Source: Candidatus Woesearchaeota archaeon (GTDB lineage: Archaea; Nanobdellota; Nanobdellia; Woesearchaeales; GW2011-AR9). From it: 64,000 bases of DNA. The notes under the pieces are model-generated. The model searched no databases. It had not been told where the DNA came from and saw only the letters and a program-made list of their open reading frames with translations. Where the stretch lies: the NCBI GenBank assembly GCA_016214025.1, contig JACRPH010000003.1:1814-65813 (forward strand). The letters run 5' to 3'. Of this stretch, positions 5,859-22,545 are shown piece after piece. Each line of letters opens with the position of its first letter. The first letter of the stretch is position 1. Both the position numbers and the translations under genes were made by a program.

Positions 5859-6776
5859 ATGCTTCAAAAAAAAGAACTGGTAAAATGGATGAAACTAACT
5901 CAGGTTCCAAAACTGGGGCCCAGCAAAATAATGAAGCTATTCCGCCTAATTTCAGACCTAGATAAAATTTTTACCATGGCTGATAATGAGCTGCTCAGGA
6001 CCAGAGTATTTAATGAACCCATGCTTATTGATTTTCATAAATTAAAAGAGGCTTTAGAAGAAAATTTTATTAAAGCTATTTCCGAATGCGAAGAAAATAA
6101 TATTAAAATAATCCCCCTAATTGATAAACGATATCCGGATTTCTTAAAAAATATCCCCTATCCGCCGCTTACTCTTTTCCTAAAAGGAGATTTAAATTTA
6201 TTATATGTTAAAAAAGTTGCTATTGTGGGCAGTAGAAAAGCCGATGAACCCTCCCAAAAGTGGGCTTATAATATTGCCCAAGATTTTGTAAAAAAAGGCT
6301 ATGCCGTAGTGAGCGGCGGAGCAATAGGGATAGATTATTCGGCCCATAAGGGTGCATTAGATGCGAACGGCAAAACCATTTGTGTGTTGGGCTCCGGGTT
6401 CTTCAAGATGTTTCCTGAATGCCACTTAGCTCTATTTCAAGCTATAGCAGAGAAAGGTCTTCTAATCTCGGAACATCTCCCTAATTTTCCCGGTTCAGCT
6501 ATAGCTTTAGTTCAAAGAAATAGAATTACCTCAGGGATATCTGATGCTTTGATTATGGTTGCAAGCGGGGAGAAAGGCGGGGCGATGATTCAAACTAAAA
6601 TTGCGTTCGAGCAAAGGGTTCCTATTTTTTGCCCTGATCGTTCGTTAAATTTACGGCCTAATGTGGGGATACCTCAAGTTATTAATGAGTGGAAAGGCAT
6701 AGAAATAAAATCTTGTGAAGAGGTATTGAAAGTGATAACTTCTCCGGAATCGCAGATAAATTTGAGCCAATTTTAG
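5859..6776 (+). CDS. dprA: DNA processing protein DprA/Smf
   Basis: 'VAIVGSRKADEPSQKWAYNIAQDFVKKGYAVVSGGAIGIDYSAHKGAL' and 'ICVLGSGF' form the DprA Rossmann-like core. Confidence 0.85.
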   Translation: MLQKKELVKWMKLTQVPKLGPSKIMKLFRLISDLDKIFTMADNELLRTRVFNEPMLIDFHKLKEALEENFIKAISECEENNIKIIPLIDKRYPDFLKNIPYPPLTLFLKGDLNLLYVKKVAIVGSRKADEPSQKWAYNIAQDFVKKGYAVVSGGAIGIDYSAHKGALDANGKTICVLGSGFFKMFPECHLALFQAIAEKGLLISEHLPNFPGSAIALVQRNRITSGISDALIMVASGEKGGAMIQTKIAFEQRVPIFCPDRSLNLRPNVGIPQVINEWKGIEIKSCEEVLKVITSPESQINLSQF

Positions 6777-7744: not shown

Positions 7745-9127
7745 ATGAAACAAGAAGAACTGTTAGCTCTTATCAAAAACGGAGAAACGCAGGAAGTTGA
7801 GTTGAAAGAAGGTTGTCCCAATGGGCATAAACTGACTGAAATAATCTGCGGTTTAGCTAACACTGACGGCGGATTTCTTATCCTTGGCGTATCAGAAAAA
7901 GGAGAGATAAAAGGATTACAGTGTAATCTTGACAAACTTCAGCAGGATATTGCTAATGCGCGTCAAAGCATTCATTCTTCCCCCCCTGTTTCTACCACAA
8001 TTCATATCATTGAGGATAAGAAAATTGCTCTAGTTGAAATCAATAAAGCCAATGACAAAAATGCTCACACCTATAATGGTGCTGTTTATGTGAGAATTGG
8101 AAGTACTACCCATAAGCTTGAAGGTCAGGAGCTTTTTGATTTTCTTAAAAATAAACAAATCTTATGCTTTGATGAGCAGGATTCAGAAGCAAAAATCGAA
8201 AATCTTGATGAGAATCGAATTAAACTTTATCTCATAAAAAGAGGTCAACCAGATTATTTAAAAGCAAACAATGTCCAAGAGTTCATCATTAGCAACATGT
8301 TTGGCAAGTTAAATGGGAAATTAAAGCTTAAAAACATTGCAGCTTTGTTTTTTGCTAAGGAACCTCATCGCTGGCATCCTCAAAGCGAAGTACGAATAGT
8401 TCGTTTCTCAGGAACAGAACCCATAAACATAGTTGTACAAAGAGATTTTCGTTCTGATCCCATGGAGAATATTGAGCAAACTATCGCGTTTATTAGAGAG
8501 AATATCTCTAAACGGTTTATAATTCCAGAGAATTCTCCAAGACGTATTGAAATTGAAGAATATCCTACATCTGTAATAAGAGAAGCAATTGTAAATGCCG
8601 TAGCCCATAGAGATTATTATAGTTATGATTCTATTCAGATAAATCTCTTTGAAGACAGAATAGAAATTTCTAATCCCGGGGGCTTGCCGCAAGGACTAAC
8701 TAAAGAGTTTTTTGGAAAGCGATCGGTAAGACGCAATCCATTAACATATCGTATCTTAAGAGAAGGTCATTATGTAGAGGGATTGGGTTTAGGTATTCCT
8801 CAAATGAGAAATGAAATGAGGAAAGCCGGACTTAGAGACCCAGAGTTTAATTTTGAAGGGGGATTTTTTGTCGTAACTCTTAGAAATGCCAAAGGCAGCA
8901 TCAAACCAGTGGAAGGGTTAAAAGATTTAAATTCTCGACAGCTTAACGCTTTAGATTATTTAAGACAAAATAAGACTATTAAGTCAAAAACGTATGCGAA
9001 TATCAATGAGGTTTCTTTGCCTATAGCACTTAAAGATATTAATGAACTCATCAAATTCAAATATATTCAGAAAGTTGGTTCGTATAGGGGGGCTTATTAT
9101 GTGTTGAGTGGGGGCGTTTTTAGATGA
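7745..9127 (+). CDS. AlbA_2 (Schlafen-like) plus HATPase_c_4 plus C-terminal wHTH protein
   Basis: N-terminus 'ELLALIKNGETQEVELKEG' is the AlbA_2 motif. The mid region 'IREAIVNAVAHRDY' and 'ISNPGGLP' is HATPase_c_4-like. The C-terminal wHTH is 'LNSRQLNALDYLRQNKTIKSKTYANI'. Confidence 0.8.
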   Translation: MKQEELLALIKNGETQEVELKEGCPNGHKLTEIICGLANTDGGFLILGVSEKGEIKGLQCNLDKLQQDIANARQSIHSSPPVSTTIHIIEDKKIALVEINKANDKNAHTYNGAVYVRIGSTTHKLEGQELFDFLKNKQILCFDEQDSEAKIENLDENRIKLYLIKRGQPDYLKANNVQEFIISNMFGKLNGKLKLKNIAALFFAKEPHRWHPQSEVRIVRFSGTEPINIVVQRDFRSDPMENIEQTIAFIRENISKRFIIPENSPRRIEIEEYPTSVIREAIVNAVAHRDYYSYDSIQINLFEDRIEISNPGGLPQGLTKEFFGKRSVRRNPLTYRILREGHYVEGLGLGIPQMRNEMRKAGLRDPEFNFEGGFFVVTLRNAKGSIKPVEGLKDLNSRQLNALDYLRQNKTIKSKTYANINEVSLPIALKDINELIKFKYIQKVGSYRGAYYVLSGGVFR

Positions 9128-9532: not shown

Positions 9533-11932
9533 ATGGAAATAAAAAGATATGCAAAAAGATTGTTTGCTTTAGGCACGGGAGCATTAATGCTGGGTGCCAC
9601 GGCTATGGGTGCTATGGCCGCTGATTTGAAAGATTATCCGGCGTTCTTGGTGAAGGACGGCTCTTTCAATGGCTATATGGTAGTTGGTGAGAATGCTAAG
9701 CCAATTGATAACTTGGCTATGACTGACATTGCGGCAGGGATGAAATATAAGAAGGCAGCAGAGACGGCTACCACGACGGTGAGTGGAGAGGCTAAGAAAA
9801 TTGAGACTAGCACTGACAACTTTAATATAGGTGATGCTTTTAGTGATATACAGGCAGTTGACTTAGATTTTGAGGATTTGCCCACTACTTTAGCTAAAGG
9901 AACTTACATTAATGATGAAGGCTTAGAATATGACTTTGAACAGGAATTGGCATTTGAGTCTGGAGTGGGAGAATTTGCGTTGTTCTCAGACACAGATTAC
10001 AACGATAAAGAGCCAACTTTAGGAATGAAATTAACTAAAGGAACTGATTTTATAACTTACACGGTAGATTTTACCACCCAACCTTTAAGTGATGCGGGTT
10101 CTTCTGGGGCTCTGCCTGATTTTGAAGACACCTCCCTTAGTATTCTAGGAACAACTTATGATGTTATTGATGCCACTAACAGCTCCACGGACATAACCTT
10201 AACTTTGTTAGGCGGAGCTTTGAAAGACACTTTGTTGTTAGGAGAGAGTAAGACTTTTACGATTGGTGGGAAAGAATACAAAGTAGAAGTAACTTTTGTA
10301 GATGCGGATGATGGAGCTAAGTTTATAGTGAATGGAGAAGCTACTCCTACCCTTGCCGAAGGAATTACCCGAAAGCTTAAAGATGGAACTTTGATTGCAG
10401 TGAAAGAAGTTTTGACCTCCAGCAAAGAGTCTGTTGCAGACCGAGCAGAATTCTACTTAGGAGCTAAAAAGTTAGTCTTAGAGAACGGCGACGAGTTGGA
10501 AGTAGATGATGAAGACGTGGATGGAGTAACAGTAGCAGTTACCGCCTCAGCATCGGGATCTGATATAGCCATGAGTGATATCGTCTTAACATGGGCTCCA
10601 GATGATGATATGTTCATAACTGAAACGAGCAGCGCAGTGTTCCCCGTAGCCGATAGATTTTCGTTTGCATACAAAGGCTTTACCACCGCCGCCAAAGAAA
10701 AGATAACCATAGAGAATAATGGTGATGATGAGATGGCGTTGAACATACCCATTAAATCAGGAAATGCCGAGATTAAGTTATTGGCCTCCACAAATGAGGT
10801 GAACTTTACTTTGATTGGTGGAGCAGATTCTGATGAAGGGTTGAAGACGGTGGCTGGTGCTGCTGCAACTACAGTATGGAACGCCACGAGTCATGAGAAT
10901 ATGGTGGTGACATATATTTCGAGTGGGGCTACTGCGGGAGAGTCTTATCTACTAGAAATAACTAAAATAGACACTACTGACGGAGTAACCTTCAAAGATA
11001 GTGTGAGTAGTGCTAAGTGGGAGGATAAAAAGGCTGCAGACACGTTCAGCGTAGGCAGTGCAACTTTAACCATTAACAGCTTTAACGAAACTACTAATGT
11101 GGTTAACCTTACTGGTGGAGCTGCCACTTACTTTGACCGAGTGATAAGTGACGAAGGGATGACTTTTTACCTACCTATTGCAGGAGCTGCTCAATCAGGA
11201 GGGGGATATACAATTAACACTACCGCCGGAGCTGCAACCTGGATTTTGTATGGTAAAGAAGAAAATAACAATGCTGTTCTTGCAAATGGTAACTTGATAA
11301 ACATAACTATGGATGGCACTGGCGATGTAGAAGTTAGTGCTTTAGCTGGAGCAGGTACTGGTTACGAAATTGCCGATACTGAGGAGTACACGTATTACGT
11401 GACTAGCGCACTCGGAACAAAAGTATTGTTCGACCAAGAGCCCGACCAAGACACTATAGAAATGGAGTATCACGGAGAAGAATCCTATGGTAACTTCTAT
11501 GTGATGGGAAGTGGCGCCTCTACTTCAACTGTTGCTGAAGGCACCTGGACACCTGTAGCTATTGTCGATGCTACCAAGCTGGATAGCGAAGTGGCTGACT
11601 ACAAAGCACAGAACTTAATCGTTGTAGGTGGGCCTTGTGTGAACACCATTGCGGCTTCGTTATTGGGCAACCCCGCGGAGTGCACCACTGGATTTACCGC
11701 CGGAGTAGGCTTAGTGAAGCTGTTCGAGAACGGAGATAAAGTAGCGATGTTAGTAGCCGGATATACCGGAGATGACACCCGAGCCGCAGGCAAGTTTGTA
11801 GCTAACAAGTGGAAAGACTTATCGGGCAAAGAAGTTAACATCGAGACTGCCAGTGGAAGCATAACTACCGTAGCTAAAGTAGAAGCACCAGCAGTAGCAG
11901 CAGAAACACCTGCAGCAACGACCACAGGATAA
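9533..11932 (+). CDS. S-layer (surface layer) protein
   Basis: Signal peptide 'LFALGTGALMLGATAMGAMAADL'. The body is acidic and T/S/G/A-rich with no Cys until the C-terminal 'AQNLIVVGGPCVNTIAASLLGNPAEC' block, which is typical of euryarchaeal S-layer proteins. Followed by a T-tract. Confidence 0.65.
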   Translation: MEIKRYAKRLFALGTGALMLGATAMGAMAADLKDYPAFLVKDGSFNGYMVVGENAKPIDNLAMTDIAAGMKYKKAAETATTTVSGEAKKIETSTDNFNIGDAFSDIQAVDLDFEDLPTTLAKGTYINDEGLEYDFEQELAFESGVGEFALFSDTDYNDKEPTLGMKLTKGTDFITYTVDFTTQPLSDAGSSGALPDFEDTSLSILGTTYDVIDATNSSTDITLTLLGGALKDTLLLGESKTFTIGGKEYKVEVTFVDADDGAKFIVNGEATPTLAEGITRKLKDGTLIAVKEVLTSSKESVADRAEFYLGAKKLVLENGDELEVDDEDVDGVTVAVTASASGSDIAMSDIVLTWAPDDDMFITETSSAVFPVADRFSFAYKGFTTAAKEKITIENNGDDEMALNIPIKSGNAEIKLLASTNEVNFTLIGGADSDEGLKTVAGAAATTVWNATSHENMVVTYISSGATAGESYLLEITKIDTTDGVTFKDSVSSAKWEDKKAADTFSVGSATLTINSFNETTNVVNLTGGAATYFDRVISDEGMTFYLPIAGAAQSGGGYTINTTAGAATWILYGKEENNNAVLANGNLINITMDGTGDVEVSALAGAGTGYEIADTEEYTYYVTSALGTKVLFDQEPDQDTIEMEYHGEESYGNFYVMGSGASTSTVAEGTWTPVAIVDATKLDSEVADYKAQNLIVVGGPCVNTIAASLLGNPAECTTGFTAGVGLVKLFENGDKVAMLVAGYTGDDTRAAGKFVANKWKDLSGKEVNIETASGSITTVAKVEAPAVAAETPAATTTG

Positions 11933-11944
11933 GCCAATAAAGGC

Positions 11945-11967
11945 TTTTTTTTCTTTATTTTTTTTAG
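11945..11967 (+). terminator. Oligo-T tract after the S-layer gene
   Basis: 'cttttttttctttattttttttag' immediately after TAA. Archaeal RNAP terminates on oligo-T runs. Confidence 0.45.
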
Positions 11968-12047
11968 TTTTTCTTCTCAAGTGATTTTAGCCAAACTTCC
12001 CGAGTTAGTAAAGTATTTAAAAGAGAGGAATAATATCTAGAAATAAA

Positions 12048-13250
12048 ATGCCACTTCCAATAAACGCAAAACAATTAATTGAAGAGCACTTAATCGAATC
12101 CGAAAGAATTGAATTAAAAGAAGGATTTAACCCCGAAGCGATAATTCATACTATGTGCGCCTTTGCCAATGATTTCAATAATTGGGGTGGAGGCTATATC
12201 ATTATTGGCGTTGATGACAAAAAAAGGATAATTGGGATAATTGAAACCCAAATCGATTCAATTATGAAAAAAATAGTAGAATTGTCCAATAAGATTCAAC
12301 TGCCGTATTATCCTATTGTTGAGCCAACAAAATACAATAAGAAAAATATTTTAATTTTGTACTGCCCTGGCGGACCTGCAAGGCCGTATAAAGCACCCCA
12401 AGAATTAGGAAGCAGATTTGAGTATAAATATTACATCAGGCACTCGGCTTCAACGGTTATTGCAAATAGAGACGAAGAAAAAGAACTTATAAGCATGTCC
12501 AACCAGATCCCTTATGATGATCAAATAAACCAAAAAGCATCGCTCAGTGATTTAAATCTACGACTGATCAAATCATATTTGCATGATATTAATTCGAAAT
12601 TAGATGCCAACTTATTAAGTTTTAATGAGCTTTGCAGAAGCCTTAATATTGTTGAAGGTCCTAATGAAATGATAAAGCCCAAAAACATAGGGCTGTTATT
12701 CTTCTCTAATGAGCCGGAAAGATACATTAGAACGCCGTGGATAGAGATTACAGTATTCCAAGATAAAATAGGAGATAAATTTAGAGAAGAGAAGTTTTTA
12801 GGGCCAATTCAGAATCAAATCATATCTGCTTTGCAGTATATAAAAAATACAGTAATACAAGAACAAGTTATCAAAGTGCCAAATAAAGCCCAAGCCGTAA
12901 GATTCTTTTCATATCCATATACTGCAATTGAAGAAGCATTAGTTAATGCAGTTTATCATAAGAGTTATGAAATAGATGCTCCGATTGAAGTAAGAATTGA
13001 ACTCGACCGAATAGATATCATTAGTTACCCTGGTCCTCTTCCTCCATTGAATAAAGACAATATTAACGATGCTATCGTAATTTCTAAACGATATAGAAAT
13101 AGAAGAATTGGCGATTTTTTAAAGGAATTAAAGCTTACAGAAGGAAAGAATACGGGATTTAGAAAAATAAGAAACGCGATGGAAGTCAATGGCTCACCTG
13201 CGCCAATATTTATTACAGATGACGAAAGAGTCCAGTTTATTACAAGTTAA
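12048..13250 (+). CDS. AlbA_2 plus HATPase_c_4 protein (second paralogue; wHTH tail detached)
   Basis: 'LIEEHLIESERIELKEG', 'IEEALVNAVYHKSY' and 'ISYPGPLP'. It ends 'ERVQFITS*' five nt after the 141-bp repeat. Confidence 0.8.
   Translation: MPLPINAKQLIEEHLIESERIELKEGFNPEAIIHTMCAFANDFNNWGGGYIIIGVDDKKRIIGIIETQIDSIMKKIVELSNKIQLPYYPIVEPTKYNKKNILILYCPGGPARPYKAPQELGSRFEYKYYIRHSASTVIANRDEEKELISMSNQIPYDDQINQKASLSDLNLRLIKSYLHDINSKLDANLLSFNELCRSLNIVEGPNEMIKPKNIGLLFFSNEPERYIRTPWIEITVFQDKIGDKFREEKFLGPIQNQIISALQYIKNTVIQEQVIKVPNKAQAVRFFSYPYTAIEEALVNAVYHKSYEIDAPIEVRIELDRIDIISYPGPLPPLNKDNINDAIVISKRYRNRRIGDFLKELKLTEGKNTGFRKIRNAMEVNGSPAPIFITDDERVQFITS
13105..13245 (+). repeat. Left copy of a perfect 141-bp direct repeat (3' end of the AlbA_2/HATPase_c_4 gene)
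   Basis: Base-for-base identical to 17419-17559 when read out by hand ('gaattggcgatttttt...gtttattacaa'). Confidence 0.95.
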
Positions 13251-13434
13251 ATCAGAGATCATATTTGGCTTTATTAGATTGAATCCAAAATGTAAAAGGG
13301 CAGATATTGAAAAAAGCACGAAAATTCCTCTTGGAACACTAAAACGATATTTGCAGGAATTAATAAACCAAGGCAGGATTAAAAAAGTCGGACCTGATAA
13401 AACCGGAGGCTATATCACGAGTCCCAGAGAGTGA
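13189..13434 (+). CDS. Detached wHTH domain, out of frame with 12048..13250
   Basis: 'IFGFIRLNPKCKRADIEKSTKIPLGTLKRYLQELINQGRIKKV' resembles the C-terminal wHTH of the 7745..9127 paralogue. The informative part starts right after the repeat edge at 13246. Confidence 0.4.
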   Translation: MAHLRQYLLQMTKESSLLQVKSEIIFGFIRLNPKCKRADIEKSTKIPLGTLKRYLQELINQGRIKKVGPDKTGGYITSPRE

Positions 13435-13467
13435 AAATAATGAACAGAATTTCAAAAATAGCAGCAA

Positions 13468-13563
13468 CTATACTCGATGACATAAATTTTTATACAAAAG
13501 AGTATGTCATCTCCTAATAAGTAAGTGACATTTTGTACAAAAACTAATGTCACTTACTATATT
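13468..13563 (+). promoter_or_regulatory. Repeat element R copy 1: 12-bp inverted repeat next to a TATA-like box, upstream of the Bro-N gene
   Basis: 'agtaagtgacat' (13520-13531) and 'atgtcacttact' (13547-13558), followed by 'atatttatgg'. The ~96-bp element recurs at 16142-16237. Confidence 0.6.
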
Positions 13564-13584
13564 TATGGAAAGGTTTGATGAAAA

Positions 13585-14445
13585 ATGAACTCAGAAAACG
13601 CTTTAATTGTCTTTGAAGGCAAGAATATCCGTAGATTATGGCACAAAGATGAATGGTATTTCTCCATTATAGACATTGTAGCCGTTTTAACTGATAGCTC
13701 CATACCAAAAAGGTACTGGTCTGACTTAAAAGCTAAGCTTCTGGAAGAAGGATTTGAATCGTACGATAAAATCGTACAGTTGAAAATGCCCGCAGAAGAT
13801 GGTAAATTTAGGGAAACTGACAGTGCCAATACAGAAACCATGTTTAGAATAGTCCAATCTATCCCCTCTCCCAAAGTCGAACCATTCAAAAGATGGCTGG
13901 CTCAAGTTGGCTATGAGAGAATCCAAGAAATTGAAAATCCAGAATTAGCACAGGATCGGGCTAAAGGATATTATGAGCTTAAAGGCTACCCTAAAAGCTG
14001 GATTGATAAGCGGTTGAGAGGGATTGCCATAAGGCAGGAATTAACTGATGAATGGAAAAAGAGAGGCATTGAAGAACAGAGAGAATACGCCATTTTAACC
14101 AATGAAATTTCTCAGGCTACTTTTGGAGTACCCATAAAGATTCACAAGGAGATAAAAGGGCTTGAACCAAAATTCAAAAATCAAAATCTGAGAGATCACA
14201 TGACGGACTTAGAGCTTATCTTTTCAATGCTTGGTGAAAGGCTTACTACTGAAGCAACTCGTAAAAAAGATGCCGATGGCTTTGCAGAAGGGTTAGAAGC
14301 AGCCAATGAGGGTGGTACCGTTGCTGGAAGAGCTCGCCGGGATGCCGAAAGAACATTCGGAATTAAAGTTGTTTCTCCAGAAAATTACTTGGATTTAACT
14401 AAAAAGAAAAGAATCGGAAAAGAAACAAATAATAAAAATAGCTAA
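13585..14445 (+). CDS. Bro-N domain protein (prophage antirepressor-like)
   Basis: 'LIVFEGKNIRRLWHKDEWYFSIIDIVAVLTDS...YWSDLKAKL' and 'FKRWLAQVGYERIQEIENPE' match the Bro-N family pattern. Confidence 0.7.
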   Translation: MNSENALIVFEGKNIRRLWHKDEWYFSIIDIVAVLTDSSIPKRYWSDLKAKLLEEGFESYDKIVQLKMPAEDGKFRETDSANTETMFRIVQSIPSPKVEPFKRWLAQVGYERIQEIENPELAQDRAKGYYELKGYPKSWIDKRLRGIAIRQELTDEWKKRGIEEQREYAILTNEISQATFGVPIKIHKEIKGLEPKFKNQNLRDHMTDLELIFSMLGERLTTEATRKKDADGFAEGLEAANEGGTVAGRARRDAERTFGIKVVSPENYLDLTKKKRIGKETNNKNS

Positions 14446-14460
14446 ATTCTCTTGCAACCT

Positions 14461-14530
14461 CAGCAGAAACACCAGCTGTAACTGAATAAGCCGTTAAGGC
14501 TTTTTTTCTTTATTTTTTAAGTTTTTTCTA
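14461..14530 (+). repeat. Copy of the extreme 3' end plus T-tract terminator of the S-layer gene
   Basis: 'cagcagaaacaccagctgtaactgaataagccgttaaggctttttttctttatttttt' versus 11898-11975 'cagcagaaacacctgcagcaacgaccacaggataagccaataaaggcttttttttctttatttttttt'. Confidence 0.7.
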
Positions 14531-14562
14531 AAGAAACATTTTTAAAGAAGCCAATCAATTCC

Positions 14563-14916
14563 TTGTTTATGATAAAAGATGCAGAACTCTTCTTCAAGGT
14601 ATATTCTGGTTTGCCTTTAGGAGAGAGAAAAACCACCATTGCGGTAATAAACAATCAGCCCATTAACTGGAATTTAGCTTATGAAGAAATAAGCAATGAA
14701 ACAGTGTTAGGAAAGAGAATATTAAACACCCTAAAGAGGTTATTGAAAGGCAACAGTGCAAAAGAATCGGTAGAAAAAGCAAAGTCGCTTATGAAGCGGA
14801 ACATATCTAAGTTAAGAACTGATACTTCGCCCGATGCCAAAGATTATGTTCTTTTTTTGTTTAACAATTACTTAGCTCTGTCGTTATTCGGGGATGCCCA
14901 GAAGAAAATACAATAG
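14563..14916 (+). CDS. Small hypothetical protein, N-terminal domain paralogous to 16320..16526
   Basis: Shared pattern 'LP...IAVI..(P).W....EI......GK(R/K)IL..LK.L' with the 68-aa protein. ATG at 14569 is an alternative start. Confidence 0.45.
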   Translation: MFMIKDAELFFKVYSGLPLGERKTTIAVINNQPINWNLAYEEISNETVLGKRILNTLKRLLKGNSAKESVEKAKSLMKRNISKLRTDTSPDAKDYVLFLFNNYLALSLFGDAQKKIQ

Positions 14917-15005
14917 TAGTCGGTGTGTTGCATCAGTAACATGAGGAGACCGCGGTCAAATTTAGCACCAGTAGTAGAAGTCTCAGTTGTAGCAGAAGTA
15001 AGCTG
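14895..15005 (+). repeat. Highly degenerate S-layer gene 3' remnant (LIVVGG segment fused to the tail)
   Basis: 'aatagtagtcggtg' resembles 'aatcgtagtcggtg' at 16117-16130. 'gcaccagtagtagaagtctcagttgtagcagaagtaagc' resembles the S-layer tail 'gcaccagcagtagcagcagaaacacctgcagcaacg'. Confidence 0.35.
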
Positions 15006-15053
15006 GGTAAAAAATTTGATTATTATGGAAAAATGTAAAGATGCTCTTGAAAA

Positions 15054-16076
15054 ATGACCAAAGAACTTGCCATAAAAGACGAAACTAGAGAGTTCTTACT
15101 TTACACTACCCCTAACGGAAAAGTAAAAGTGGAAATATTTCTGCACAACGAAAACATCTGGCTCACTCAGGAAAAAATAGCGTTGTTATTTGGTGTACAA
15201 AGGCCTGCAATAACCAAGCACTTAAAAAACATCTTTGAGAGCAAAGAATTGATAGAACAGTCAGTTAGTTCCATTTTGGAACATACTGCCCAAGACGGTA
15301 AGAAATACCTAACCAAATATTACAATCTCGATGCCATCATTTCCGTAGGATACAGAGTCAATTCGACACAAGCAACCCAATTTCGCATCTGGGCGACTGA
15401 AAAGCTCAAAGAGTATATTATCAAAGGGTTTACTATGGATGATGAAAGACTCAAAAATCCGAATAATGTGTTTGGGAAAGATTTCTTTGAAGAACAATTA
15501 GCTCGGATAAGAGATATTCGATCCAGCGAACGCCGTTTTTATCAAAAAATAACTGATATCTATGCCCAATGCAGTGCAGATTATGACCCCAACAGTGAAA
15601 TTACACAACGATTTTTTGCAATTGTACAAAATAAGCTGCATTGGGCAATCAGCCGCCAAACCGCAGCCGAAATTATCTACTCTCGTGCTGATAGTGAAAA
15701 ACAAAACATGGGTTTGACTAACTGGAAAAATGCCCCTAAAGGACAAATACGGAAATTTGATGTAAGCATTGCAAAAAATTATTTAAACGAAGAAGAACTC
15801 AGCCAACTCAATCGCATTGTTTCGATGTACTTGGATTATGCAGAAATGCAGGCAAATAATCGGAAAATAATGACCATGAAAGACTGGGTCATTAAATTAG
15901 ATGCATTTTTACAATTCAATGAGAAAGATATTCTAACTAATACCGTAACAGTAACGGCTGAGATCGCAAAACAATTTGCAGAAACAGAATTTGAAAGATA
16001 TAAAGTAGTGCAAGATAAGTTGTTTGAATCTGATTTTGACCAAGCCGCTAAAAAACTATTAAAACAAGCTGGATAG
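15054..16076 (+). CDS. RhuM family protein
   Basis: 'VKVEIFLHNENIWLTQEKIALLFGVQRPAITKHLKNIFESKEL' and 'YYNLDAIISVGYRVNSTQATQFRIWATEKLKEYIIKGF' are the canonical RhuM pattern. Confidence 0.8.
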   Translation: MTKELAIKDETREFLLYTTPNGKVKVEIFLHNENIWLTQEKIALLFGVQRPAITKHLKNIFESKELIEQSVSSILEHTAQDGKKYLTKYYNLDAIISVGYRVNSTQATQFRIWATEKLKEYIIKGFTMDDERLKNPNNVFGKDFFEEQLARIRDIRSSERRFYQKITDIYAQCSADYDPNSEITQRFFAIVQNKLHWAISRQTAAEIIYSRADSEKQNMGLTNWKNAPKGQIRKFDVSIAKNYLNEEELSQLNRIVSMYLDYAEMQANNRKIMTMKDWVIKLDAFLQFNEKDILTNTVTVTAEIAKQFAETEFERYKVVQDKLFESDFDQAAKKLLKQAG

Positions 16077-16143
16077 CGAAGTGGCTGACTACAAAGCACA
16101 AAACTTAATCGTAGTCGGTGGATCTGGCGTGAGCACCGTAGCT
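16065..16143 (+). repeat. S-layer gene fragment (encodes KLDSEVADYKAQNLIVVGG...)
   Basis: The 35-nt run 'caagctggatagcgaagtggctgactacaaagcaca' is identical to 11575-11609, then diverges. The RhuM stop codon lies inside this fragment. Confidence 0.85.
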
Positions 16144-16237
16144 ATACTCGATGACATAAATAATTATACAAAATAGTATGTCATCTCCTAATAAGTAAGT
16201 GACACGACGTATAAAAATTAATGTCACTTACTATAAA
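16142..16237 (+). promoter_or_regulatory. Repeat element R copy 2, upstream of the three-gene cassette
   Basis: 'ctatactcgatgacataaat...' with the 11-bp inverted repeat 'agtaagtgaca' (16194-16204) and 'tgtcacttact' (16222-16232), followed by 'ataaatacc'. Confidence 0.6.
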
Positions 16238-16319
16238 TACCACACTCCCCTGAAAGGTGTAAATCACAAAGAAGAATTTGTTCAACGAAAGCTTTATTAA
16301 AAACACTTCATTTTAGCTC

Positions 16320-16526
16320 TTGATGACAGGTGACGACTATACCATTCTCCGAACAAAGTTTCTGAAAGCATTTGCTAATCTCCCGGAAAAAGCAAAATCA
16401 GAAGAGGTTATAGCAGTTATAGATGAGAAACCTTACACCTGGATTGCTGCTACTATAGAAATTAAGAGTGAATCAGCGACAGGAAAAAAAATATTACTAA
16501 TCCTTAAAGAATTAGGCGTCCTATGA
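16320..16526 (+). CDS. Small protein (68 aa), first gene of a coupled three-gene cassette
   Basis: ATG at 16323. The stop overlaps the next start as ATGA (16523-16526). Paralogue of the 14563..14916 N-terminal domain. Confidence 0.5.
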   Translation: MMTGDDYTILRTKFLKAFANLPEKAKSEEVIAVIDEKPYTWIAATIEIKSESATGKKILLILKELGVL

Positions 16527-16750
16527 ATGAAAAAATATCCCGTGAATTGAAAAAAATTGTACTTTGGAGATTAGACACAATTCCCCCTAACTTTAAATTA
16601 TCTATCGGTAATGAGGGCACTTTTACCAAAGAAGAATTGAGACAACACGTAGAAAAAGAGGATCAAATTGGGGTGACTTTTGCTAAAATGCAGCTTAATT
16701 TTATGAAAGCATTAGCCAGCGGTGAATTCTCCAAGACATTATCTGAATGA
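16523..16750 (+). CDS. Small protein (75 aa), second gene of the cassette
   Basis: ATGA overlaps at both ends (16523-16526 and 16747-16750). No motif recognised. Confidence 0.5.
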   Translation: MNEKISRELKKIVLWRLDTIPPNFKLSIGNEGTFTKEELRQHVEKEDQIGVTFAKMQLNFMKALASGEFSKTLSE

Positions 16751-17400
16751 AAACAATCATTACCATGCCGAACTATGATGATGCCACTGCTTACCTTTAT
16801 TGCTATGCTGAAGAATTGGTAAAATTTGCAGAAGAGAAAAATATCCTGATGAGTCAGTTAAAACGTCCAAGATTACGGAGAAATATTCTGGAAGAAAGCA
16901 TACAAAAGCAAAACCCCCCGCTGCTTCTCTTTAATGCGCATGGCGATGAAATTACAATTTATGGCGACAAAATTGAGGGGGAAGAAGAGTATCTTATTCA
17001 AGAGGGAGAGAACCACCAACTTCTTACAGGAAAATTAACCTATGCCAGAGCGTGTAGCGCAGCGGCTTCACTTGGAAAAGCATGCACGCAGAAAGATGGC
17101 TGTTTCATCGGCTACAATCAGCCATTTAGTTTCTGGACAGATACAAGTAGAACGACCACGCCATTAAAAGATAAAGTTGCACAGCTCTTTCTCCAACCTT
17201 CCAATGAATTAGCACTTGCTCTCCTTCGTGGTAAGAGTGCACGTGAAGCAGCAGATACTTTTCTCAATATGTCAAAGAAAAATATTCTCCATCTGCTGGC
17301 GAAACAAGATGAACCCGGAGCAATGGCTTCTGCAATGCTTCTTTGGAATAACATGATGGCACAAGAAGTTCTTGGAAACGAAGAAATGAGATGTTCTTAA
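16747..17400 (+). CDS. Caspase/CHAT-like (clan CD fold) protein, tentative
   Basis: A strand-His-Gly element 'PLLLFNAHGDE' is followed about 45 aa later by a strand-Ala-Cys element 'KLTYARACSAAASLG'. This spacing and order match the clan CD His/Cys dyad. Confidence 0.4.
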   Translation: MKTIITMPNYDDATAYLYCYAEELVKFAEEKNILMSQLKRPRLRRNILEESIQKQNPPLLLFNAHGDEITIYGDKIEGEEEYLIQEGENHQLLTGKLTYARACSAAASLGKACTQKDGCFIGYNQPFSFWTDTSRTTTPLKDKVAQLFLQPSNELALALLRGKSAREAADTFLNMSKKNILHLLAKQDEPGAMASAMLLWNNMMAQEVLGNEEMRCS

Positions 17401-17418
17401 CTGTTAAAACGCCTGGGC

Positions 17419-17559
17419 GAATTGGCGATTTTTTAAAGGAATTAAAGCTTACAGAAGGAAAGAATACGGGATTTAGAAAAATAAGAAACGCGATGGAAGT
17501 CAATGGCTCACCTGCGCCAATATTTATTACAGATGACGAAAGAGTCCAGTTTATTACAA
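17419..17559 (+). repeat. Right copy of the perfect 141-bp direct repeat
   Basis: Identical to 13105-13245. Confidence 0.95.
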
Positions 17560-17606
17560 AAACGAGCAGATATTCAAGAAAGTTCGCTTCGCTCACTAAA
17601 AACTAA
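17419..17606 (+). pseudogene. Orphan 3' remnant of an AlbA_2/HATPase_c_4 gene
   Basis: Encodes 'RIGDFLKELKLTEGKNTGFRKIRNAMEVNGSPAPIFITDDERVQFITKTSRYSRKFASLTKN*' with no upstream body. Confidence 0.7.
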
Positions 17607-17608
17607 TT

Positions 17609-17863
17609 TTACATCCTAATTTCTTTCTTTTTTCTTGGTTTATTAGGTAAGAAGATTAGAATTCCTCTTCCTTTGATATTTCCATGCCACTCCTGTAAGC
17701 TTACGTTCCCCATATCATACAGTTCATAGTGCAGACCATTTAATGAAGAATGCAAGTATAACTTTGACTTAGGATATTCTTTACCATTGCATTTCGTAAT
17801 GTGCTTTGATATTTTGCCTACTTTTAGCAGTTTAATTTCGAAAGGCTTATATGAAAAGACCAC
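17609..17863 (-). CDS. Hypothetical protein (84 aa)
   Basis: ORF only; no motif recognised. Confidence 0.3.
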   Translation of the reverse strand: MVFSYKPFEIKLLKVGKISKHITKCNGKEYPKSKLYLHSSLNGLHYELYDMGNVSLQEWHGNIKGRGILIFLPNKPRKKKEIRM

Positions 17864-18340
17864 TTTACTTTAGAAATAAGCGTAATTCTTAAGCTTTGTG
17901 GCTACAATCGAAGTTATACTTCACTGTATTATTAGGCAGTTCCAAGTGCTCCACACGCTCCATCGGAAAGGGTTTTATACTTTATATACAACTAAAATGT
18001 GCAAAGAGTTTATTTATGCCGCCAGAGAGATAATTCATAGTCAATAGCGACAAAAAAAGTAAAGGTGATGCAGGAAATCCAGAATGGGCATATGCAACTG
18101 TACTAATGATGAAAACAAGACCATTATTGCCCAAACACCTGCTCTTTAGATAATAACTTCCCTTCTTTTTCCTCTCGTAGTGCTAATTCTACTGCTTCTT
18201 TATCCTCAGAATAGGTTACAATTAGCGGGATTAGAGTGGTAAAATAAATACCCCAAATAGGGTAAAGTATTTAAAGTAAAACTATTTATTACCACAAAAA
18301 TGGTAAAAAAGGGGTATTTTACTAGGGGCAGGATTACCAC

Positions 18341-18904
18341 ATGATCAGCCAGATTTTCACCCCAGACTGCTTTAAGGTTCTCTCTTTATTCAGCATCTCT
18401 CCCGGTTCTCGATTTAACCGCACTGAAATAAAAAACAGAACCAGACTAAATAATGTGCCTTTGGACAAAGCACTGTTGCTTTTGCTTAGTTCGGGAACAA
18501 TCACCCGTACCAAAAATTATTATGGATTAAACTTTGAGAATGACAATATTAAACCTTTATTGGAGCTATGTTCTAAACAATATAAGCAATTAAGAGAACT
18601 GCCTTTAAACGTTTATTATCTATTATTAGATTTAACCGCAGGCTTATCTTTGGTGAAAAAAGTTGAAGTATTTTTGTTTGGGTCCTATGCCAAATTAGTG
18701 TATAAAGCGAACTCCGATGTGGACATAGCTGTTTTATGCTCAAGTCAGCTTGGTAAAGCAGCCATTAGTAAGTTAACTGCAAAATTGGAACAACAATATC
18801 AACTGAAACTTAAAGTACATTACTTTGAAAAGAAATCATTTTATAAAACCAAGAAAAAACCATTAATAAAAAGCATCTTAAAAGATGGAGTTAAATTAAT
18901 ATAA
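18341..18904 (+). CDS. wHTH plus nucleotidyltransferase domain protein
   Basis: 'VFLFGSYAKLVYKANSDVDIAVLC' NTase motif. Sits immediately upstream (2-nt gap) of the surface locus. Confidence 0.6.
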   Translation: MISQIFTPDCFKVLSLFSISPGSRFNRTEIKNRTRLNNVPLDKALLLLLSSGTITRTKNYYGLNFENDNIKPLLELCSKQYKQLRELPLNVYYLLLDLTAGLSLVKKVEVFLFGSYAKLVYKANSDVDIAVLCSSQLGKAAISKLTAKLEQQYQLKLKVHYFEKKSFYKTKKKPLIKSILKDGVKLI

Positions 18905-18905
18905 A

Positions 18906-21350
18906 ATGTCAAAAAAGAGGTCGTTCGGCAGCTCAGGACAGGTAACTATATTCATAATTCTAGGGATATTGCTGCTGTTTGGCTTCCTTTCTATGATGTA
19001 CTTAACCGGCTCCGTTAAACAGGAGCAACTTAAAACTGAACAAACCAAATTTACTTCTAATTTATTTCAGAAAGAAGCCATGCGCCTGTACGTGGAAGAT
19101 TGTTTGGAAGATGAATTAGAAAATGGCTTGATTCTACTGGGAAAACAAGGCCGAATCTGGGAAGATCAGCCGGGCGGAACTAAACCTTATGCAGAAGGAA
19201 AAAACGGAGCCAGTTATGATGGGGAACGGGTATTATTCGGCATCAGTAGAGAAGAATATTCTTCATTTCAGAATGCCTATCCCTGTAACAATGATACTGC
19301 CCCTACTGAATTTTGCCGATATAAGCACCCTGACCTTAAAGTGGGCTTTGGCATTTTAGAACTAAAAGAAAGCACCCTAGAAGAAGACTTACAGCGATAC
19401 TTGATTAACCGCACGTTATGGTGTGTAGAAAACTTTACTAAGAGTAACATCTCTCAAAATGCCGAATTAGTGACTAAAAAGCTAGACTTAACTGTAGATA
19501 TCATCCAAGAAGGAATCAATGTTAAGGTTTACTTTCCGTTAAAGCTTAAAATAGGAAAAGAAGAATTTTCTCAATTAACTCAGTTTGATTTCTTTTATCC
19601 GTCGAGATTTAATGATCTGCTCGACGCTGCCGTAGCTCGCCCCTTGAAAGAGGATTACACTAAAGTAAACTTCAATTATACCCAAAGTTTCTTAGAAAGC
19701 CCCGAATTTGGGTATTATGACACTTATCTTTCATTAGGAGTCCAGATGGAAAAGCAGGAAACATCTAACGGAGATAATTTCTTTAAGTTCACCCCGGTAA
19801 TGTTTAGCGTATTAAATAAGCCGGTGGATTATTCATTCCATATTGCCCGGCAGAATCGGCCTCCAGCGCTGGATTATGTAGAAAGACTCGCCTGTCCTTC
19901 GTTAGGCTATGATTATTTAGTTATCGAAGGAGATAATTCATCATTGGGAGAAATAAACATCACCTTGAATGCTTTGGATCCAGATGAAGACGGTTTTAAT
20001 TATAGCTTCAATGAAGTTCTTGCTTCTTGGATTGGAGCAGCGGGTGGTAAGAAGACGATAAATAACTCTAATTTATATGTATCTAAAGATTTGCTTCAAC
20101 AAAATTGGTACAACTTTACTGCCAACGCCACTGACGAACACAACTTAAGCGACTGGCAGACGGTAAGAGTGCTGGTAGATAGACCACTTACAGTAAATGT
20201 AACTTTCTCCTCACCATATGCCGATATTGAAGGGATGAGCGGCGGCGTGGCAATTGTATCCCCTGAAGACCCTGCTTTCATTAACTTAATTCTTCCAAAT
20301 GATTCATTAGTTCCAAATGCTTCACCGCAGATAACTTTGAATTATTCCAATGACGACGGAATTACTGCCTTTGGATACGAAATTCCTTCAGTAGAGATTC
20401 CCATAAGTCCTGATGGCTGTTACAGTTTCCCGCTCAAAACCGGTAAAAAGTGCAAATTAGCTTCTTATGGTGCACCAACAGAAATAATTGGCTTGTTTCC
20501 TGACAATACTTTTGGCTTAGGGCAAACCAATGGTTTACTTAACTTATCTTATTCCATGGACTATTGCAGCAACCTGAACGCGTCTAAGTCGGTAGAAATT
20601 CCAGTATATGTTGCACCCTGTGTTCCACATAAGAATCCAGAACGGCCGTTTGCGTACCCTTATCACATCTACAAATTCTTGGATTATAACTTTACCTTGG
20701 GAAATGGGACTTTTGACCAAAAAGAAACCGGAACTACCACTGGATTCAATCCTTTGGAAGCTACTCACTCTTGTTGTATTGGTGTTCCTGAAAATCCCGG
20801 CGGCTGGAAGCTGGTCGACGAGAATGATCTTAAGAATCCCTGTTTTGTTAATCCGGCTCCGGGCTGTTATGGTGTAATTGCCGATTACTTAAAATTAGAA
20901 AAGAATTATGGTGGTTATGTTCTGGAAAAAGAAATGCAGCTGTGCGACGGAACCAGAGGAAATGTGTGTGAAGGCGGCCCAGCCGGGGAATTATGGGACG
21001 ATAAGCTTACTTGCGGGGAAAACAATAAGAATAAATGCAATGGTATCTCCTCCAAATGTCAAGGGCTTCCCGCGTTTGGATTAATTCCGGACAAAGGCTG
21101 GTGTTATGGCAAGATGGGATGTGAGAAACTTTGTCCATCATCTCAAAGCGTAGTTAGCCTTGATAAATATAACAATGCGCCAACAGAAATGATAAATGCC
21201 CGAGCAAAAAATAACCAACTCCTGAGCGACGGAAAAGAGCTGGGTTTCGTCTGCGGCTGCTCAGGCCATGATGGAAGTACCTGCGACTCCAACTTTAATG
21301 GTTTTTTCAGTGGGAAATGTGACGGTGGAAAATGCAAAGGAGATAATTAA
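18906..21350 (+). CDS. Large Cys-rich secreted protein with a pilin-like N-terminus (814 aa)
   Basis: N-terminus 'MSKKRSFGSSGQVTIFIILGILLLFGF'. The C-terminal third is Cys-rich ('CCIGVPENPGGWKLV', 'CGCSGHDGSTCDSNFNGFFSGKCDGGKCKG'). Confidence 0.6.
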   Translation: MSKKRSFGSSGQVTIFIILGILLLFGFLSMMYLTGSVKQEQLKTEQTKFTSNLFQKEAMRLYVEDCLEDELENGLILLGKQGRIWEDQPGGTKPYAEGKNGASYDGERVLFGISREEYSSFQNAYPCNNDTAPTEFCRYKHPDLKVGFGILELKESTLEEDLQRYLINRTLWCVENFTKSNISQNAELVTKKLDLTVDIIQEGINVKVYFPLKLKIGKEEFSQLTQFDFFYPSRFNDLLDAAVARPLKEDYTKVNFNYTQSFLESPEFGYYDTYLSLGVQMEKQETSNGDNFFKFTPVMFSVLNKPVDYSFHIARQNRPPALDYVERLACPSLGYDYLVIEGDNSSLGEINITLNALDPDEDGFNYSFNEVLASWIGAAGGKKTINNSNLYVSKDLLQQNWYNFTANATDEHNLSDWQTVRVLVDRPLTVNVTFSSPYADIEGMSGGVAIVSPEDPAFINLILPNDSLVPNASPQITLNYSNDDGITAFGYEIPSVEIPISPDGCYSFPLKTGKKCKLASYGAPTEIIGLFPDNTFGLGQTNGLLNLSYSMDYCSNLNASKSVEIPVYVAPCVPHKNPERPFAYPYHIYKFLDYNFTLGNGTFDQKETGTTTGFNPLEATHSCCIGVPENPGGWKLVDENDLKNPCFVNPAPGCYGVIADYLKLEKNYGGYVLEKEMQLCDGTRGNVCEGGPAGELWDDKLTCGENNKNKCNGISSKCQGLPAFGLIPDKGWCYGKMGCEKLCPSSQSVVSLDKYNNAPTEMINARAKNNQLLSDGKELGFVCGCSGHDGSTCDSNFNGFFSGKCDGGKCKGDN

Positions 21351-22451
21351 ATGAAACACAACATACTCTTTTGGGTTGTACCTTTCGCAGTATTAATCTC
21401 TGCTTCTTTTGCTTTAGCCGAAGATGGCTGCTTCACCTACGCTGATAGCCCATTATATTGTAAAACCATTTCCATTGAAGAAGCGCAGGATGAATGCTCA
21501 TTGTATGAAGATTGTACTCTCGAAGCTGCTTTTTCCTCCGGAACTTGTGATGATACTTCTGCTTTCCCTTCCTGCCAGAAAGTCCTGTGCAAAAGCTCTT
21601 GCAGCGAAACTTTCGTAGAAGAATGTTCTGCCGGAATAATTCCCGAGGAGGAGCAGGCAGAATGGTGCTCTCCCGGCTGCTGCAAGTTTTCTTATTCTGA
21701 AGGCGATTTTTGTGAATACAAACCCTCCAAATGGCTGTGCGAAGTAGAAGCCAAGAATAAAAATATCGTTCAATTTAATTTTGGAATTTCTGATGAGGAA
21801 CAATGTGCTGATTCATGTGCAACTGCAACCTCACCCTTAGAGAAAGAAAATGTTCCCATCAAGCCCAGCACCAAAAATATTTCCCAAACCAATCTTACCG
21901 ATACTAACGAAACTGAAACTAACTCTTCCGGATTAGGCTGGTTTTTAGTATTCCTGTTAGTGGTAATCGTAGGAGGAATAATATTTTATTACCGCAAGCT
22001 CATTTCTTTCAACCTAAGTAAATTATCCCCAGAACCAGAAGAGGAATTAGAAGACGTTACGCGCCCACCGAAACCTGAAGACGATGACAGCTTCTCCAAA
22101 ACGTTGTGGAAATATTTGATAAAAGAAAGGCTGAAGCCGCTTACAGCAAAGTATGGGCGCAAAGTTAAAATAAAGCAACGCGAGGAATTCTTGATGGAAA
22201 CCGGCTTAACCGTGGAAAAGGCTCCGGAAACTATCTTTACTAAGTTGAAGAAATTATCCCGGAAGAATAAGCACGCCGAACCTGCTCCTAAACCCAAGCC
22301 AGAAAAGAAAGCATTAGAGCGCTTAAATGAGCTTACTGCCAAGCCCTCAGCAAAGTCAGGTTCTGCTGAAATTCCATTAACTTCTACTAAGCCTAGTTCT
22401 AAGCGCAACGAAGCTCTGGAAGAGTTAAAAAAAGTGGCCAAAGGAAAATAA
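21351..22451 (+). CDS. Type I membrane protein: signal peptide, Cys-rich head, TM, K/E-rich tail (366 aa)
   Basis: 'FWVVPFAVLISASFALA' signal; head includes 'EWCSPGCCKF'; TM 'GWFLVFLLVVIVGGIIFYY'; tail ends 'LEELKKVAKGK'. The head and tail are paralogous to those of the giant protein. Confidence 0.65.
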   Translation: MKHNILFWVVPFAVLISASFALAEDGCFTYADSPLYCKTISIEEAQDECSLYEDCTLEAAFSSGTCDDTSAFPSCQKVLCKSSCSETFVEECSAGIIPEEEQAEWCSPGCCKFSYSEGDFCEYKPSKWLCEVEAKNKNIVQFNFGISDEEQCADSCATATSPLEKENVPIKPSTKNISQTNLTDTNETETNSSGLGWFLVFLLVVIVGGIIFYYRKLISFNLSKLSPEPEEELEDVTRPPKPEDDDSFSKTLWKYLIKERLKPLTAKYGRKVKIKQREEFLMETGLTVEKAPETIFTKLKKLSRKNKHAEPAPKPKPEKKALERLNELTAKPSAKSGSAEIPLTSTKPSSKRNEALEELKKVAKGK

Positions 22452-22510
22452 CTTCTTGATCCAACATACCTCAAATCCCTTTCTCTTTCTCCTGAAACGG
22501 GCTCGGAACA

Positions 22511-22518
22511 TTTATAAA
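22511..22518 (+). promoter_or_regulatory. TATA-like box 28 nt upstream of the giant-protein start
   Basis: 'catttataaacg'. ATG at 22546. Confidence 0.4.
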
Positions 22519-22545
22519 CGATTAAGGTTTTATTCGGGGTATCAG

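Follow-up and report, generated by a model that had tools for sequence, protein, structure and literature searches.

The stretch of DNA analyzed here (the window; 64,000 nucleotides (nt), whose positions serve as coordinates throughout) derives from a metagenome-assembled genome of Candidatus Woesearchaeota, which belongs to the DPANN archaea. Its plus strand carries a compact cassette of three consecutive genes, designated A, B and C. Gene A (16323..16526) encodes a product of 67 amino acids (aa) from an ATG at 16323 (NCBI MBI4979997.1), or of 68 aa from an alternative TTG start at 16320. Gene B (16523..16750) encodes a 75-aa protein, and gene C (16747..17400) a 217-aa, single-domain protein predicted to be a caspase/CHAT-like cysteine peptidase, which is 100% identical to NCBI HZC30_00410. 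Both B and C begin at an ATGA that overlaps the stop codon of the preceding gene. Direct reading of the bases places these overlaps at 16523-16526 (A/B) and 16747-16750 (B/C), in agreement with the initial annotation of this DNA, which had described three open reading frames (ORFs) chained by ATGA at 16523 and 16747. A putative archaeal TATA-like box, TTTATTAAAAA, is located on the same strand at 16293..16303, its center lying approximately 25 nt ahead of the start codon of A, and A-T-rich TATA-like boxes are found at equal distance upstream of A in nearly all of the 62 complete cassettes described below. Given the position of this box relative to the start codon, the operon probably has its own promoter and is likely transcribed as a leaderless or near-leaderless mRNA.

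Genes A, B and C are conserved as one unit

Homologs of C sharing 42-56% identity with the window protein are preceded, in every contig looked up, by genes encoding 61-68 aa and 76-85 aa. The distribution of the trio was surveyed by scanning one genome per GTDB species and by applying hidden Markov models (HMMs) of A and B to six-frame ORFs. The scan of species representatives identified 67 loci, all of them archaeal and mostly labeled as Woese-, Pace-, Nano-, Aenigm-, Nanohal- or Altiarchaeota, or as Parvarchaeum; seven of the 67 carry the unconfirmed label 'uncultured Methanosarcinales'. A and B were found 5' of C in every locus with sufficient upstream sequence, and all 62 distinct complete copies present the order A-B-C, with A and B directly upstream of C on the same strand. 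These copies reside in archaeal genomes of DPANN type. A overlaps B by 4 nt in nearly all 62 trios; in most of them, B and C likewise overlap by 4 nt or are separated by a few bases. The three proteins vary little in size, and none was observed fused to another domain. Considered separately, the C family comprises 1449 cluster representatives at an expectation (E) value of at most 0.001, in a library holding one representative per 50%-identity cluster, the A family 785 clusters at 90% identity and the B family 80, the latter having been searched from a single sequence.

Pairwise identities within the trio are correlated, most closely between B and C (r = 0.81) and also between A and C (r = 0.68), and each of the three genes, when compared with six or seven relatives, has a ratio of nonsynonymous to synonymous substitution rates (dN/dS) of 0.05-0.15, denoting strong purifying selection. 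The constant order in 62 of 62 copies and these dN/dS values imply that the trio is not a chance arrangement. A-B-C is therefore one co-evolving unit under purifying selection, and the co-conservation of the three families that the initial annotation had put forward as a check is borne out by complete copies from other genomes.

Protein C adopts a predicted clan CD fold with an invariant Cys and a near-invariant His

The AlphaFold2 model of protein C, based on a 46-sequence alignment, has a predicted local distance difference test score (pLDDT) of 95.7 and a predicted template modeling score (pTM) of 0.92. It presents an alternating beta/alpha core with the order beta1-alpha-beta2-alpha-beta3-[NAHG]...beta4-[RAC]-alpha-beta5, in which the strand spanning residues 59-62 runs into N-A-H65-G66 and the strand spanning residues 97-100 into R-A-C103. 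The corresponding sequence motifs are 'PLLLFNAHGDE' (residues 57-67; His65 codon at 16939-16941) and 'KLTYARACSAAASLG' (residues 96-110; Cys103 codon at 17053-17055). Both had been singled out previously, at a distance of about 45 residues; the motifs are present as described, and the spacing is to be corrected, since His65 and Cys103 are 38 residues apart.

A Foldseek search of the Protein Data Bank (PDB) with this model returned the SAVED-CHAT filament 8tl0 as the first match (E 5e-6, template modeling score 0.57-0.60), followed by caspase-11, caspase-4 and legumain, all with probability 1.00 and E values from 5e-6 to 1e-3. In the Foldseek viral library, the top match was a giant-virus 'caspase domain protein' (E 6e-4). 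The model and its structural matches thus present the alpha/beta/alpha sandwich with caspase-like strand order that characterizes clan CD, with a His-Gly pair after one core strand and a Cys after the following core strand, and they support the earlier assignment of C to this clan, made from the two motifs. The putative catalytic residues are conserved throughout the family: among 286 distinct members, His65 is found in 285, and Gly66 and Cys103 are found in all. Asn63, Gly73, Gly110, Gly122, Pro139 and Asp142 are nearly invariant in the same set. Arg101, two residues before Cys103, is shared by 217 of the 286 members and by 61 of the 62 trios, leaving no variation in the latter to correlate with B or A. 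This residue occupies what we take to be the position of the S1-pocket residue of caspases (Gln283) and metacaspases (Asp) and, by that analogy, hints at a preference of C for an acidic residue at P1, a suggestion that is speculative.

At the sequence level, C does not match any Pfam, NCBIfam or PHROG model (for the window protein, Pfam was searched up to E≤1), and none of 46 family members matches CHAT (PF12770), Peptidase_C14 (PF00656), Peptidase_C13 or any other peptidase family even at E≤10. A profile search against PDB sequences returned nothing relevant, and a PADLOC match to a SAVED-PDDEXK effector (E ~1e-3), observed in merely 3 of the 46 members, was treated as a chance hit. The protein is a single domain of approximately 215 aa in all listed family members, with no signal peptide or membrane anchor visible in the sequence. 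Considering the fold assigned by AlphaFold2 and Foldseek, the conservation of the His/Cys pair and the lack of sequence matches to curated families, C represents a new, sequence-orphan family with a predicted clan CD (caspase/CHAT/legumain-like) fold and an intact His/Cys pair.

Proteins A and B are tiny proteins without a known fold

Members of family A span some 61-68 aa, with an invariant Phe and an invariant Trp, and have an alpha-alpha-beta-beta-alpha-alpha topology. The AlphaFold2 model of A (60 sequences, pLDDT 95.2) consists of helices at residues 3-18 and 22-27, a hairpin at 29-39 and helices at 40-48 and 52-63. Foldseek did not return any significant PDB match for this model (best E 0.71), nor any match to ribbon-helix-helix, helix-turn-helix or AbrB folds, and a profile search of A against PDB sequences returned nothing. 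No conserved operator is visible upstream of A among the cassettes. The domain DUF7713 was considered for A and set aside as uninformative, since its weak matches in 11 of 42 members cover just ~15 residues of the hairpin.

In the proteins of family B, which span some 72-86 aa, two Gly and one Phe are invariant, and Asp47, which sits within a 'K-(E/G)-D-x-I-G' stretch, is nearly so. A profile search of B against the PDB returned weak matches to S100 EF-hand proteins (E ~0.7) and a match to a designed double-psi-barrel protein (E 0.005) built from two sub-threshold repeats. The latter provides a lead toward a possible cradle-loop or AbrB-like half-barrel, for which no supporting Pfam MazE/AbrB match was found; searches of B likewise gave no sigma factor or CI-2 signal. 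Neither A nor B has any significant match in Pfam, NCBIfam, PHROG or PADLOC. The possibility that both are paralogs, with an apparent common helix, hairpin and helix-Gly-helix pattern, found no support (hhalign probability 1.8%).

The cassette occurs in unrelated, variable neighborhoods

The limits of the cassette were defined by comparing positions 11000-19000 of the window with all loci using blastn. The segment 16307..17413 (plus strand) is the sole part of the neighborhood that aligns with the closest relatives, at 84-88% DNA identity; the conserved span begins upstream of the TATA-like box and ends 13 nt beyond the stop codon of C. Flanking genes differ in every locus, and the neighborhoods are unrelated and variable, comprising type I restriction-modification, RadC, PIN/MazE, tyrosine integrase, radical-SAM and Bro-N genes. 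As determined by clustering and Pfam searches, the recurrent neighbors are nucleotidyltransferases with a winged helix-turn-helix (wHTH-MNT, 16 loci), HEPN (9 loci), Bro-N (8 loci), RadC and Fic proteins (5 loci each), together with PD-(D/E)XK nucleases, ORF6N proteins and AAA_14/DUF4143 ATPases. At least one of these families is carried by 26 of the 48 loci of at least 6 kb, a raw count without background control. The cassette resides among accessory genes of the toxin-antitoxin, restriction-modification and mobile-element types. No CRISPR, cyclase, TIR, Cas10 or gRAMP genes were found in the neighborhoods examined.

Homologs of the window Bro-N protein are encoded within 5 kb of the trio in eight loci (the window, L001, L021, L024, L026, L027, L033 and L034), and their varying position and orientation suggest a common pool of island genes rather than an operon link. 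In L034 (137-2520), two C genes are found in tandem, the second with its own A and B and the first cut by the contig end; this arrangement reflects either a tandem duplication of divergent cassettes or their double insertion. The trio of locus L008 adjoins a giant ORF and T2SSE/T2SSF genes.

Decayed cassettes include a fused remnant in the island of the window cassette

The ORF at 14563..14916 (plus strand; alternative start at 14569) matches the HMMs of both A (E 5e-27) and C (E 4e-9). Its residues 10-60 align to A (BLASTP E 3e-10) and its residues 60-116 to residues 159-216 of C (E 3e-6), the two parts being joined in frame at '...LKRL|LKGNSA...'. An intact homolog of its A-like part, P0478, ends in '...LKRLEII', and the sequence cluster of the fused ORF has only two members. 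The similarity to A noted in the initial annotation is therefore real, and the interpretation of the ORF as a simple paralog is not, since the tail of C is matched as well. On the basis of these alignments, the ORF is the remnant of a second, divergent A-B-C cassette from which a single in-frame deletion removed B and the catalytic two-thirds of C. Decay was also observed in other genomes. In L018, L028 and L075, C is truncated or frameshifted while A and B are intact, and in L037 C is frameshifted, with B partly visible and A lost beyond the end of the contig. Among the loci examined, no C gene was intact where A or B was not.

In the window, the cassette is part of a 4.3-kb island (13105..17559) bounded by perfect 141-nt direct repeats (13105-13245 and 17419-17559; 100% identity). 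The repeated sequence is the 3' end of an AlbA_2/HATPase_c_4 gene (12048..13250), and its right copy belongs to a decayed gene fragment (17391..17606); Pfam HATPase_c_4 is detected on both the fragment and the gene. The repeat looks like either an att-type duplication made by an integrating element or the product of recombination between gene copies; no integrase is encoded inside the island. From left to right, the island contains a wHTH ORF, a 94-nt palindromic element, a Bro-N gene (13585..14445; Pfam E 2.7e-9, PADLOC PDC-S13), the fused ORF, a RhuM gene (15054..16076, plus strand; Pfam E 1.6e-109, PADLOC PDC-S05), a fragment of the S-layer gene that lies upstream, the other 94-nt copy and A-B-C, with the fused ORF and the RhuM gene making up island cargo at 14569..16076. 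The Pfam matches uphold the RhuM, Bro-N and AlbA_2 ATPase neighbors of the initial annotation.

The AlbA_2 gene at 12048-13250 stops (VQFITS*) exactly where the 141-nt repeat ends, and the wHTH that usually ends AlbA_2 proteins is encoded in a different frame, by an 81-aa ORF of its own (13189-13434). The gene seems to have been split, or to have undergone a frameshift, where the repeat ends; its 460-aa AlbA_2/HATPase_c_4 paralog at 7745..9127 is intact. Two pieces of the 3' end of an S-layer-like gene (9533..11932) recur in the island in scrambled order (11575-11647 at 16065-16137 and 11898-11972 at 14461-14526, with 89% and 77% identity), which points to repeated recombination or insertion at this site. 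A DprA/DNA_processg_A gene with a SLOG-like region (5859-6776) is located upstream of the first AlbA_2 gene, and the region 18906-29037 encodes very large, Cys-rich and probably secreted proteins of 814, 366 and 2193 aa that are almost without family matches, the exceptions being CarboxypepD_reg and Ig-like repeats in the 2193-aa protein.

The first copy of the 94-nt palindromic element (13468-13561) follows the wHTH ORF, with 24 nt between its end and the start of the downstream Bro-N gene, and the second (16142..16235), 90% identical to the first, lies outside and upstream of the conserved cassette, whose boundary is at 16307. The element contains two palindromes, GATGACATA-N18-TATGTCATC and AAGTAAGTGACA-N16-TGTCACTTACT, that share a TGACA/TGTCA core and thereby provide four half-sites, and the wHTH ORF next to the first copy encodes a candidate binding protein. 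Two copies are found in the window, against zero expected by chance, and the element occurs nowhere else in it. The initial annotation had placed the cassette under the same palindromic control element as the Bro-N gene. This role as a cassette operator was rejected because the element is absent from all 76 other loci compared and falls outside the conserved unit, and the cassettes carry a TATA-like box of their own. The 94-nt element is hence a local feature and not part of the cassette.

Comparison with known protease and toxin systems

The closest structure to C is the CHAT domain of SAVED-CHAT (8tl0), from a type III-B CRISPR/CBASS hybrid system of Haliangium ochraceum. Both proteins share the order of the His...Cys dyad (H375/C422 in SAVED-CHAT, H65/C103 in C), whereas C has no SAVED or other sensor domain, is much shorter (217 versus ~478 aa), shows 12-14% identity over the aligned region and does not match Pfam CHAT. 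The closest functional analogy, a protease encoded beside small proteins, is offered by PCaspase with PCi and PCc-sigma. PCaspase is a promiscuous caspase-like protease that is inhibited by the co-encoded small protein PCi, which it also cleaves (bioRxiv 10.1101/2023.06.23.546230). PCi is a predicted CI-2-like protein and PCc-sigma a sigma factor, whereas A has a fold without matches and B shows neither signal; moreover, PCaspase requires activation by SAVED-CHAT, and A-B-C does not encode an activating protease. In type IV Thoeris, a caspase-like protease acts as the promiscuous executioner of abortive infection (bioRxiv 10.1101/2024.10.24.620036). That protease is Arg-specific and activated by a TIR-made nucleotide, whereas no TIR partner is found near A-B-C, and the Arg located two residues before the Cys of C would probably be unsuitable for an Arg at P1. 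In general, C was not found to have the sensor or partner that accompanies signal-activated caspase-like effectors (SAVED-CHAT, TPR-CHAT/Craspase and type IV Thoeris).

In terms of gene organization, the cassette resembles tripartite toxin-antitoxin operons, such as omega-epsilon-zeta and PaaR-PaaA-ParE, which likewise comprise three tightly coupled, co-directional genes (small, small and a larger toxin) with a patchy, island-associated distribution. The ATGA overlaps, sharp boundary and variable flanks of A-B-C reproduce the compact coupled operon and patchy mobile distribution of tripartite and type II toxin-antitoxin systems. There is, however, no relation in sequence or fold, no DNA-binding fold was detected in A, and, to our knowledge, a clan CD protease is not a described toxin class in tripartite operons. 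In MARTX and clostridial toxins, the C80 cysteine protease domains are embedded in a large toxin and are activated by inositol hexakisphosphate; like C, they have a caspase-like core of ~200-220 aa without accessory domains, and they are not among the Foldseek PDB matches listed for C. In PADLOC-DB v2.0.0, neither A nor B has a match, and the trio fits no named defense system, as had been surmised from the sequence. No paper describing the trio or DUF7713 was found in the literature. The trio corresponds to no described toxin or defense system and is most likely a new protease-based conflict module.

A candidate protease-based conflict module

With moderate confidence, we interpret A-B-C as a self-contained, horizontally mobile, protease-based conflict module of DPANN archaea, of the toxin-antitoxin or abortive-infection type. 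In such a module, C would be an active cytoplasmic cysteine endopeptidase that damages the cell when unrestrained, and translational coupling would provide A and B in fixed proportion to C, allowing them to bind it and to hold it inactive. B may be the likeliest direct inhibitor or pseudo-substrate of C, as its divergence tracks that of C most closely, and A would act as a second subunit, adaptor or regulator. Once A and B are lost, C would be released to cleave proteins of the cell or of a virus and thus bring about growth arrest, with cassette loss, viral block of host gene expression or a trigger-induced release as possible triggers. A broader proposition, which we advance tentatively and regard as doubtful, is that the trio constitutes a new archaeal class of immune or addiction systems, confined to and exchanged among DPANN archaea, in which two small proteins of previously unseen fold act as the direct gate on a minimal caspase, without a nucleotide signal or a sensor.

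Several observations weigh against a conflict module. No sensor component is evident in the cassette, and the model of A does not resemble a DNA-binding or inhibitor-like fold, leaving its role as a regulator unsupported. Searches of IMG/VR, GenBank phages and PLSDB plasmids yielded no homolog, and there is therefore no direct tie of the cassette to mobile replicons. MNT and HEPN genes are abundant in DPANN genomes generally. The direction of decay, with C lost while A and B persist, is what toxin-antitoxin logic predicts, yet it is not significant, given that it rests on 4-5 events and that C makes up 60% of the coding length. Lastly, the trio is strongly conserved although the genomes are reduced, which would be compatible with a physiological role as well.

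Such a role would be that of a DPANN-specific regulatory or maturation protease complex, acting for instance on cell-surface or host-interaction proteins and located in variable regions by chance. It would account for the strong purifying selection on all three genes, for a very large C family of 1449 cluster representatives and for the genes of giant secreted proteins and of type IV pilus/secretion ATPases found nearby in some loci (L008; 18906-29037 in the window). We nonetheless deem it improbable, for the neighborhoods vary by locus around a sharp cassette boundary, the trio was detected in just 67 of the species representatives scanned, C has no visible signal peptide or membrane anchor, and tandem and decayed copies are found (L034, the window remnant and the frameshifted C genes). 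A and B strictly co-occur with C and diverge along with it, which may alternatively mean that they are dedicated substrates, with C cleaving A and/or B (for example, at Asp47 of B) and thereby releasing or activating an effector or regulator. TPR-CHAT, which cleaves Csx30, and the bacterial caspase-like proteases that cleave gasdermins offer parallels, as does the cleavage by PCaspase of its neighbors PCi and PCc-sigma, and the conserved acidic residue and Gly of B, together with R101 two residues before the Cys of C, are in line with such an arrangement. It appears rather unlikely, however, for proteins that are small, fully folded and conserved from end to end (the pLDDT of A is 95 throughout), that have no detectable effector domain, membrane segment or DNA-binding fold, and that are encoded with no upstream activator of C.

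The presence of legumain among the structural matches and the lack of membership in any peptidase family at the sequence level also bring to mind a non-hydrolytic C, which would use its Cys and His, like legumain-type ligases and GPI8, to carry out transpeptidation or ligation, or would be a ligand-binding pseudo-enzyme acting on or with A and B. This appears very improbable, since the best matches are hydrolytic CHAT and caspase proteins, an invariant dyad disfavors a pseudo-enzyme, and A and B do not contain the variable 'core peptide' typical of modified peptides.

The cassette defines three protein families that fall outside all curated libraries; C would be among the smallest caspase-fold enzymes, and the fold predicted with confidence for A lacks a solved relative. 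Caspase-like proteolysis in prokaryotic conflict has so far been known from bacterial CRISPR type III, CBASS-like, gasdermin and Thoeris systems, and a conflict role for A-B-C would extend it to archaea and to a sensor-less format. If the released protease is an executioner, the cassette would amount to a compact, caspase-type form of programmed cell death and to a rare defense or addiction mechanism of archaeal origin, with possible use in conflicts between these symbionts and their hosts or viruses. According to a 2026 survey (PMC12988326), DPANN archaea have few CRISPR-Cas and restriction-modification systems, and their genomes are enriched in candidate systems that have yet to be validated. 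A three-gene cassette that is widespread, compact and amenable to experiment would help fill this gap in DPANN immunity.

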